Shown: positions 28,997 through 31,544, numbered from the stretch's first letter. The stretch: DNA of 64,000 nt from Acidilobaceae archaeon (GCA_038824665.1 JAWBBK010000005.1:44642-108641), one strand, 5' to 3'. The notes: generated by a model from the sequence alone, not told the origin. Made by a program: numbers and translations.

Positions 28997-30040
28997 CTAG
29001 ATTCCGAAGAGACCGCTGAGACCGGAGTACAAGTCTACTTCTTCTTCTTCTTTCTTTTCTTCTTTCTTCTCTTCAGTCTGTTGTGTTGTAGGAGCTGAGG
29101 CTTGAGCTAACTGATGAGATGTATGAACTGTAGAAAGCGATACTGCTTCCTCTATACCGAGTTCTTTGGCCTTTTCCCCTAGGGCTAAAACAATTGCAAA
29201 ACATTCCGTTACGGCTTTTCTCAAAGCAGGTTCCAACAGGCCGGGCAGAGGTATTGCTAGCTCCTCAGCTAGAACGTTAGCTCTTCTCTCAGCTTGAAGC
29301 AACATGTGAGGAACTGCTTCTTCTACGTCAAATAAAGCACCTTCTACCGCTACTTTCAATAACTCTTGAACCGCCTCGCTTAACTCTTTTGAGAACGATT
29401 CGAGATCTAGCTTCAGACTATCGACAGGTAGGACCAGACCTCCTTCATATGCCGCTATTACCTTCAGAGACGTCTCTATCGGTTTAATTCCTATTTTTTG
29501 AAGTACGCTAGCCACCTCTGGAGTTATGATCTGACCTGCCTTGACTACTACCGTAGACTTTTTGATATATGCCTTGCCTCCTCTAACCTCATAAGGTATC
29601 TTGAGCCTTCCAAGAACTCCAAGCATAGGTCCTGCAGGTATGTTCGTAGGTCCTTCAGGAACTATTATGTCTTTAGGAGCAACCTGACCGGGCTTAGCGT
29701 CAACCGCTACTTTGATCGAATCTACTAACGAGAATAACTTGAATGGATTCTCGTTGCTAAAAATAAGCAAAACTGTACCTTGAAGAACGTTTTCTATAGA
29801 GCTTTTATCAATATTCAAGCTTTCAACAGCTTTAAGTATCAAGGATTTCTTAGCTACCTTGGTTTCCCCTACCTTCCTTAGCTCCTTTCTTATTTTCTGA
29901 ACGACATTAGTAGGAGTCCCGGTTAGGTCCGCTAGAAGTATAGTACGATAGCTTGTCATCAGCTTCTTAAGCTCCTCTACGACCTGGACCTTCCAAGGTT
30001 GAACCTTTCTGGTTCTAACCTTTAAGCTCACATGGGTCAC
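28997..30040 (-). CDS. rpl10: 50S ribosomal protein L10 (uL10/P0)
   Basis: VQPWK, AKPG..AP.DIIVPEGPT insertion domain and acidic tail ending GLSGLFG. Confidence 0.95.
   Translation of the reverse strand: MTHVSLKVRTRKVQPWKVQVVEELKKLMTSYRTILLADLTGTPTNVVQKIRKELRKVGETKVAKKSLILKAVESLNIDKSSIENVLQGTVLLIFSNENPFKLFSLVDSIKVAVDAKPGQVAPKDIIVPEGPTNIPAGPMLGVLGRLKIPYEVRGGKAYIKKSTVVVKAGQIITPEVASVLQKIGIKPIETSLKVIAAYEGGLVLPVDSLKLDLESFSKELSEAVQELLKVAVEGALFDVEEAVPHMLLQAERRANVLAEELAIPLPGLLEPALRKAVTECFAIVLALGEKAKELGIEEAVSLSTVHTSHQLAQASAPTTQQTEEKKEEKKEEEEVDLYSGLSGLFGI
28998..29098 (-). repeat. 101-bp perfect inverted repeat, copy 1 (rpl10 3' end)
   Basis: Reverse complement is identical to 31443-31543. Confidence 0.92.
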
Positions 30041-30696
30041 CTTAGCAAAGCCACTGAAGGTGACATCGTCTTCTTAACGTAAACGGTTTTTATCTTGTCA
30101 GCTCCTAACTTAGACTCTACCAAAGAAAGCACTGTTTTAGCGTTCTCTACAAGTTGTGAAATGCTAGTTCTTTCCGAACCGATCCTACAGCCTATCTGTG
30201 GCTGTCCTCTAGCTCTAAGCAAGACTGCTCTCTTATATCTCTCGACCACTTCCGCTATGTTTGCATTAGGCTGTACAGGCATTAACGCTTTACCTCTAGG
30301 TCCTAAAGCTGGGCCCAGGATTTTGCCAACCACACCCATTAGGTCAGCTCTCACTAAAACCCAATCACAAGACTCTGCTAACTTTTTAGCTCCTTTCTTG
30401 TCTAGTGCTTGGATATCCTGTCTGGAAAAAACCCGGATGCCCTGGATGTTCTTCGCCGCTATCAGCATATCTCCTTCAGCTACTAGACAGATGCTTACAT
30501 CTCTACCGATACCGTGAGGAAGGAAAACTACTTCTCTGAACCTGCCTTCTTGAGATTTAGGATCCACACCTTTCAACACTATCTGTAACTCTACTCCTTG
30601 GTCGAACCGTCTTTTCCCGAGTTCGAGAGCTTTAGATATGGCGTCTCGCAAAGCAACCTCATCTATAGGCATCTCGCTTGCCCCCCAGGACTTCAC
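30037..30696 (-). CDS. rpl1: 50S ribosomal protein L1
   Basis: RRFDQGVEL, LPHG, LGPALGPRGK and VYVKKTM motifs. Confidence 0.95.
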   Translation of the reverse strand: MKSWGASEMPIDEVALRDAISKALELGKRRFDQGVELQIVLKGVDPKSQEGRFREVVFLPHGIGRDVSICLVAEGDMLIAAKNIQGIRVFSRQDIQALDKKGAKKLAESCDWVLVRADLMGVVGKILGPALGPRGKALMPVQPNANIAEVVERYKRAVLLRARGQPQIGCRIGSERTSISQLVENAKTVLSLVESKLGADKIKTVYVKKTMSPSVALLR

Positions 30697-30726
30697 ATTA
30701 TAAAGTCTTTAAAAGCGTTCTTGAAG

Positions 30727-31047
30727 CTAAGCTTTAAGCCACTTCTCTTCATATCGCTTCAGTAGCTCATCGTATAATCCTTTTTCTATTTCTGCAGTCA
30801 CAAGCTTCGGGTCTTTTCCATTGACCGTTATCCCAATGCTCCTAGCCGAGCCCAATATCGTTTTGACCGCAGCTTTAAGACTCTTAGCTAAAAGATCTGG
30901 CTTCTTTTCGATAGCTATCTCTATGATTTTTTCTAAAGGCAGGTCTCCGATCTTCTTGTGAGCAGGGTCTCCGCTAGGCTCTGAAACGTTAACGGCTTTA
31001 AGTAACAGCTCAGTGGCGCTAGGTTTGACCTGACCTCCTTTTCCCAT
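30727..31047 (-). CDS. rpl11: 50S ribosomal protein L11, C-terminal rRNA-binding domain only
   Basis: [40 protein letters not shown]; 106 aa; TATA and SD directly upstream. Confidence 0.88.
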
Positions 31048-31205
31048 ACGCTGCCCCTTCCGAAGCCTTATGACTGAAGCTTAAATAAGGTATAGCGCTG
31101 TTGATTTCTTGTCTACATCGTGAAGCCTAAACTTGATTTGGTGTTCACGATACTGAAATGTTTTTAACTTTGCAACCAGCTAGCCCTTGCGGGGGCGTGT
31201 CAGGA

Positions 31206-31544
31206 ATGCCTAATGAAGGTAAAGCATATATACATGCTGCGTTAGCTCTGCACTACGCAGGACAACCTGTAACTGAAGAAGCTTTAGAGAAGATCGTTAG
31301 AGCCATGGGATTAGAGCCTAACGCAGTTAAAATCAAAATGCTTGTAGCAAGCCTCTCTCAGATAAATCTAGAGGATGTACTCAAACAAGCTCTTGTAGCT
31401 ACTCCTGTAGCTACGGTCTCAGCGCCTGCTGCCCAACAGGTTTCAGCTCCTACAACACAACAGACTGAAGAGAAGAAAGAAGAAAAGAAAGAAGAAGAAG
31501 AAGTAGACTTGTACTCCGGTCTCAGCGGTCTCTTCGGAATCTAA
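31206..31544 (+). CDS. rpl12: 50S ribosomal stalk protein L12 (aP1)
   Basis: YIHAALALH..G..VTEE, Ala/Pro hinge and acidic tail; start at MPNEGK preferred. Confidence 0.93.
   Translation: MPNEGKAYIHAALALHYAGQPVTEEALEKIVRAMGLEPNAVKIKMLVASLSQINLEDVLKQALVATPVATVSAPAAQQVSAPTTQQTEEKKEEKKEEEEVDLYSGLSGLFGI
31443..31543 (+). repeat. 101-bp perfect inverted repeat, copy 2 (rpl12 3' end)
   Basis: tcagctcctacaac..ttcggaatcta is identical to the rpl10 tail on the opposite strand. Confidence 0.92.

Follow-up and report, generated by a model that had tools for sequence, protein, structure and literature searches.

Identical rpl10 and rpl12 tails form an inverted repeat in a hot-spring archaeon, a pattern consistent with gene conversion

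The window analyzed here, a stretch of 64,000 nucleotides, comes from the metagenome-assembled genome of a hot-spring archaeon of the family Acidilobaceae (G000; 10 contigs, 1.10 Mb, 83% complete). It contains the genes for the ribosomal stalk (Table 1). The minus strand carries, in this order, rpl11, rpl1, rpl10, a 50-nt spacer, and alaS; rpl12 is on the opposite strand, 158 nt upstream of rpl11, and is transcribed divergently. The rpl10 product has the L10 N-terminal rRNA-binding domain and the archaeal insertion, and the rpl12 product is of the 60S-acidic type, which identifies the pair as archaeal stalk proteins. The start of rpl12 had been placed at 31158 in an earlier note on this DNA; it is corrected here to the ATG listed in Table 1, which is conserved in G001, a genome of the same genus (g1) that is a single contig of 1,159,524 nt. 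The same note had assigned rpl11, and this gene stands, but not as a full-length one – it encodes only the C-terminal domain.

Table 1. Features of the stalk-gene locus, in coordinates of the window
Feature	Position	Strand	Remarks
alaS, alanyl-tRNA synthetase, 921 aa	26181..28946	-	PF01411, PF07973; directly downstream of rpl10
TATA-like box CTTTATAAGT	28972..28981	-	~30 nt before alaS start, outside repeat; putative alaS promoter
rpl10 (aL10/P0), 347 aa	28997..30040	-	PF00466 1.6e-22, PF17777 1.3e-17
Repeat arm A	28998..29098	-	Final 33 codons of rpl10 and TA of stop
rpl1, 219 aa	30037..30696	-	PF00687
rpl11, C-terminal RNA-binding domain only, 106 aa	30727..31047	-	PF00298 only; start MGKGGQ conserved in G001
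Divergent intergenic region rpl11/rpl12	31048..31205		Two TATA-like boxes, both conserved in G001
TATA-like box CTTAAATAAG	31080-31089	-	Putative, for rpl11
TATA-like box TTTTTAA	31162-31168	rpl12-directed	Putative, for rpl12
rpl12 (aL12/P1), 112 aa	31206..31544	+	PF00428 2.5e-14
Repeat arm B	31443..31543	+	Final 33 codons of rpl12 and TA of stop
Fe-alcohol dehydrogenase pseudogene	31621..32799	+	Three frame segments; downstream of rpl12

The alcohol dehydrogenase (ADH) pseudogene beyond rpl12 is split into segments 31621-, 31697–32110 and 32119–32799, and a tandem duplication of 8 nt, ATCTCAGA, near 32090–32105 marks the second frame break. The orthologue in G001 is an intact ORF of 392 aa. 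Between the pseudogene and a Toprim (DnaG-like) gene there is a CitMHS-type transporter ORF of 366 aa (33305–34405, plus strand), with no counterpart in the otherwise syntenic region of G001.

A repeat search of the window found that the two 101-nt arms form an inverted repeat of 100% complementarity with 2344 nt between them, and thus the perfect rpl10/rpl12 inverted repeat claimed in the earlier note is present as described. The 33 codons of each arm encode SAPTTQQTEEKKEEKKEEEEVDLYSGLSGLFGI. Both proteins share an acidic stretch and a hydrophobic end, and the 33 identical residues end in VDLYSGLSGLFGI. The edges of the tract are sharp: identity runs from the S codon of SAPTTQQ to the second base of the stop codon, with unrelated flanks on either side, and the stop codons themselves differ (TAG in rpl10, TAA in rpl12). 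These two are the only full copies of the tail in the genome. Given the same peptide and the codon usage of the genome, the probability of the same 33 codons in an independent second copy is ~10^-14.8; the tail repeat is not a chance product.

The rpl10 and rpl12 3' regions were surveyed in 51 genomes – 50 Acidilobaceae, including that of the window, and one outgroup – and self-repeats were scored. Tail repeats of 100% identity, between 85 and 147 nt long and mostly direct, were found in 16 of the 51 genomes, one of them (G068) beside a scaffold gap, and 11 others had tails with an identity of 95% or more over 83 nt or more. In 39 genomes the tails form a direct repeat and in five an inverted one: G000 and G001 in genus g1, and G017, G050 and G003 in genus g3. 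Six of the 51 stretches had no tail repeat, with rpl10 possibly elsewhere in those genomes, and the one further direct match, in G007, does not involve the tails. The tails of G017 form a perfect inverted repeat of 92 nt, those of G048 have 95 perfect nucleotides in common across two contigs, and in G034, a single contig, rpl10 and rpl12 share 122 perfect nucleotides although the two genes, both on one strand, are separated by 34 kb. A perfect L10/L12 tail repeat is ordinary in this family, and only the inverted layout is unusual. The earlier suggestion that this layout avoids the deletion that direct repeats would allow is needless, as relatives retain perfect direct repeats of the tails that are as long as 147 nt.

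Two individual genomes in the survey deserve separate mention. An apparent third tail copy in G068 was rejected as a scaffold artefact, since it lies beside a run of N. In G007 the L10 ORF (L019 8535–9422, 295 aa) ends in ...GEKAKELGIQP, without an acidic tail, and is followed by ~340 nt before rpl12; other genomes of genus g7 retain the tail.

The canonical order rpl11-rpl1-rpl10-rpl12-alaS is found in genera g7, g14 and g15 and in the outgroup G028, which bears out the claim that rpl12 of the window has left it. In all relatives examined alaS follows the stalk genes; the tail adjoining it is that of rpl10 in the window and that of rpl12 in the relatives. In a tree of 14 alaS sequences, g1 and g7 are sister genera (support 87/89) and group with g15 and g14 in a larger clade (98/95). 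Because g1 nests with these three genera, its layout is derived.

Other arrangements are found elsewhere in the family. Within genus g3, G047, the earliest-branching in the tree, and G049, which was left out of the tree, have rpl1-rpl10, a gap of ~700 nt and then rpl12-alaS, all in direct order, and the derived clade of G017, G050 and G003 has the rpl1-rpl10 block inverted. A direct order in the early-branching genome and an inverted one in this clade fit a single event, not repeated flipping. In g3, rpl11 is separated from rpl1, and in G034 the 34 kb separates rpl12-alaS from rpl1-rpl10. In G016 (genus g2), an 84%-complete genome, rpl10 adjoins alaS without rpl12, which lies where a different contig is cut off. 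At least five layouts of the cluster were seen across the family; the stalk cluster is unusually plastic in it.

The ancestral neighbor of rpl11 on the left, nusG, also varies in position: it is directly upstream of the short rpl11 in G014, by ~85 nt, and is at a contig end in the window genome. A two-inversion route with nusG as the left flank is unsupported, as the gene beyond rpl12 is the ADH gene and in G001 nusG is found at a distance of 276 kb.

The tails evolve together within each genome. Over the last 63 nt, L10 and L12 match each other at 62 of 63 positions in G000 and 59 of 63 in G001, whereas orthologues of the two genomes match at only 44–45 of 63. Species-specific residues are common to both paralogues (YSGLSGLFGI in G000, SSGLAGLFGF in G001), and the differences between the two genomes, synonymous and non-synonymous, are carried by both paralogues of each. 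Comparison of tail identity in related genomes, an approach raised in the earlier note, gave the same concerted pattern across the family: in 28 of 41 genomes the identity between the tails within the genome exceeded the best cross-genome identity in the same genus. The gene conversion that the note had proposed is thus supported both by the g1 pair and by the wider comparison. The tails of the paralogues have diverged in the other 13 of the 41 genomes, and the arms of G001 are 93% alike over 71 nt, with four mismatches and a gap and a longest perfect run of 23 nt; conversion is therefore neither universal nor very frequent. On the most parsimonious view the inverted layout of G000 and G001 is older than their split, in which case homogenization would have taken place between inverted arms. 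Judging from these alignments, the arms have probably undergone conversion after the two species diverged. Which tail was the donor in the most recent conversion, L12 or L10, is ambiguous, with 76 versus 79 of 101 nt matching and protein scores of 110 versus 100.

The reading that we favor, with good though not complete confidence, is that gene conversion keeps the tails identical and that the inverted repeat is a passive by-product, with no dedicated switch. The repeat is the C-terminal module shared by the two stalk proteins, made up of a hinge, an acidic-lysine stretch and a hydrophobic end. Recurrent, non-reciprocal homologous recombination between the rpl10 and rpl12 tails would copy one onto the other. 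In this genus rpl12, formerly flanked by rpl10 and alaS, was carried by a rearrangement to the other strand, where it now precedes rpl11, and as a result the homogenized tails lie as an inverted repeat. Uniform tails may be favored by selection, with all the tails of one ribosome changing together. We infer both the recombination mechanism and the selection for uniform tails. Inversion of the 2.3-kb core would be an occasional accident of the same recombination. In G034 direct repeats persist where a crossover would delete 34 kb, and thus conversion without crossover is enough to account for the identity.

A broader role for crossovers is doubtful. On this reading, homogenized tails would have repeatedly reshaped the L11-L1-L10-L12-alaS cluster, and the cassettes of G000, G001, G017, G050 and G003 may still flip at low frequency. 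The junction of the rpl10 tail with alaS would be the exact leftover of a crossover in the tails, either by inversion or by deletion after a duplication, and such junctions in g1, and possibly in g2, fit crossovers inside the tails. If this were true, low-frequency flipping would make an essential ribosomal operon structurally polymorphic with no change in its proteins.

It is improbable that the cassette inverts at a measurable frequency, with two silent states, in which either rpl10 or rpl12 leads into alaS, that alter read-through into alaS and on the ADH side. By construction, a crossover within the arms would invert 29099–31442 and swap the outer flanks with both proteins unchanged, as the earlier note had said. 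It would exchange only the third base of the stop codons, and the flipped state would place the ADH pseudogene downstream of rpl10. The perfect 101-nt inverted repeat is a valid substrate for such an exchange, the arms have probably undergone conversion after the divergence of the species, the rpl10-tail-to-alaS junction matches what a past tail crossover would leave, and in the tufA/tufB pair of Salmonella up to 50% of recombination events invert, according to PMC6735719. However, G000 and G001 are in the same orientation, and in g3 the inverted layout is resolved in three genomes, all in one state. The perfect direct repeats of G034 are further evidence that crossover is not needed. The drift of the G001 arms also argues against a dedicated switch, and a domain scan of 25 ORFs in 18311–41440, a span that extends ~10 kb past the repeats on either side, turned up no integrase, resolvase or invertase.

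The promoter-like boxes bear on the same question. Archaeal promoter architecture is the ground for reading the TATA-like boxes of Table 1 as promoters, and they are treated here as putative ones. The box before alaS, outside the repeat, is found at an equal distance from alaS in G001, though the rpl10-alaS spacer of that genome is ~190 nt long. A conserved box of its own for alaS counts against a dedicated switch, and the proposal that flipping would swap the promoter pointing into alaS is weakened by it.

It is very improbable that the position of rpl12, or the perfect identity of the arms, was made by a collapse or misjoin of the assembly at the repeat. The genome is an incomplete assembly in 10 contigs, and repeats break other assemblies at the same place (G016, G048, G068). 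Against this, G001 has the order and orientations of the window – ADH, rpl12 | rpl11, rpl1, rpl10, alaS – in a single contig, with synteny extending for ~16 kb, and a repeat-driven misjoin is unlikely there because its arms are not identical. The rpl11|rpl12 junction is also bridged by independent public contigs from three studies (X1, 30780–31465; X3, 30748–31543; X4, 30992–31174). Contigs of X1, X3 and X4 cover both outer boundaries as well, with no variant letters reported inside either arm in the three runs; they stop inside the arms (29024/29076; 31465/31517), which places the joins of the body to the outer flanks beyond their reach. Other searches were negative: ~3% of an RNA run (X10) gave 0 reads at the locus, an exact 41-nt tail pattern had 0 matches among metagenome contigs, and an L10 search for other assemblies of the species or genus returned only relatives with at most 37% identity. 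The position of rpl12 is not an assembly error; the gene has truly been relocated, and the change is fixed in the genus.

It is barely credible that the identity is held by purifying selection at the nucleotide level, through codon choice or mRNA features and without recombination: the tails are coding parts of highly expressed genes, and their Glu/Lys composition is biased, but the differences between G000 and G001 are common to both paralogues, the same pattern recurs in 28 of 41 genomes, and parallel fixation is not credible because so many sites would be involved.

A second feature of the locus is the short uL11. ORFs for uL11 with only the C-terminal RNA-binding domain, 106–115 aa long, were found in G000, G001, G007 and G014. 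In a profile search PF03946, the N-terminal domain of uL11, was found in none of the two g1, six g14 and eight g7 genomes, three of which are single contigs; the other 12 genera have it in 48 of their 51 genomes. The PF03946 HMM had no match in the window genome, and tblastn with the N-terminal domains of eight relatives gave chance matches only, the best of which (C4:20461–20595) was rejected because it has two stops and is antisense inside a 960-aa helicase ORF. Genus g15, which has a full-length L11, falls among g1, g7 and g14 on the alaS tree with moderate support, and given this placement the N-terminal domain may have been lost in either one event or two. A 108-aa protein of Aeropyrum pernix K1 with PF00298 only is annotated at source as 50S ribosomal protein L11P. 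No paper was found on loss of the uL11 N-terminal domain in a literature search that covered subscription journals and the 1980s thinly. For ribosome function, a uL11 that lacks this domain in three genera may be of greater consequence than the tail repeat.

The locus may be of wider interest for several reasons. It is a case of domain-level concerted evolution in archaea, in which a 33-residue factor-binding tail is common to two otherwise different essential proteins. Uniformity of the tail at the DNA level extends across the family and holds for adjacent genes, for genes separated by 34 kb and for inverted ones. Concerted tails could explain how all the tails of the stalk change together with their GTPase partners, and the inverted layout offers a simple natural test of how frequent crossovers are in archaeal gene conversion.

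Inversion switches of the Hin/Gin and fim type have inverted repeats that flank a promoter-carrying segment, and they use short recombination sites. The window has inverted repeats around a promoter-bearing segment as well, if its putative promoters are counted. It differs from these switches in that the scanned ORFs have no recombinase domain, the arms are long coding sequence, and the neighboring alaS carries a promoter-like box of its own.

Identity at the DNA level may already have been noted in older work on the Sulfolobus L10e/L12e genes. No paper was found on concerted evolution or gene conversion of the stalk tails, again with thin coverage of subscription journals and the 1980s. The protein families and the tail are those of the P-stalk: aL10 (P0) and aL12 (P1, P2) belong to two families (PF00466 with PF17777, and PF00428) with an acidic tail and a hydrophobic end. 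Published work describes the C-terminus of the stalk proteins as recognizing translation GTPases (PMC5887453) and the archaeal L10 and L12 C-termini as highly identical at the protein level (PMC1635324); in the papers found, PMC1635324 included, the similarity reported is at the protein level only. The window differs from this in its perfect nucleotide identity over 101 nt and in its divergent, not tandem, genes.

The closest known parallel is the tufA/tufB pair of Salmonella, for which PMC6735719, citing Hughes 2000, describes concerted evolution by homologous recombination. There too, inverted translation genes are homogenized, and a crossover inverts the segment between them with the protein unchanged (PMC6735719). 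As in that system, the two paralogues of a genome resemble each other more closely than either resembles its orthologue in the other species, also at synonymous sites. The tufA/tufB repeats are whole genes of 1.2 kb that are 761 kb apart, and their inversion has been shown experimentally and its fitness cost measured; the module in the window is a 101-nt part of each gene, its copies are 2.3 kb apart, and a single orientation was seen in the two genomes of the genus. The locus is a case of concerted evolution of partial paralogues, with a potential for inversion as known from tufA/tufB.
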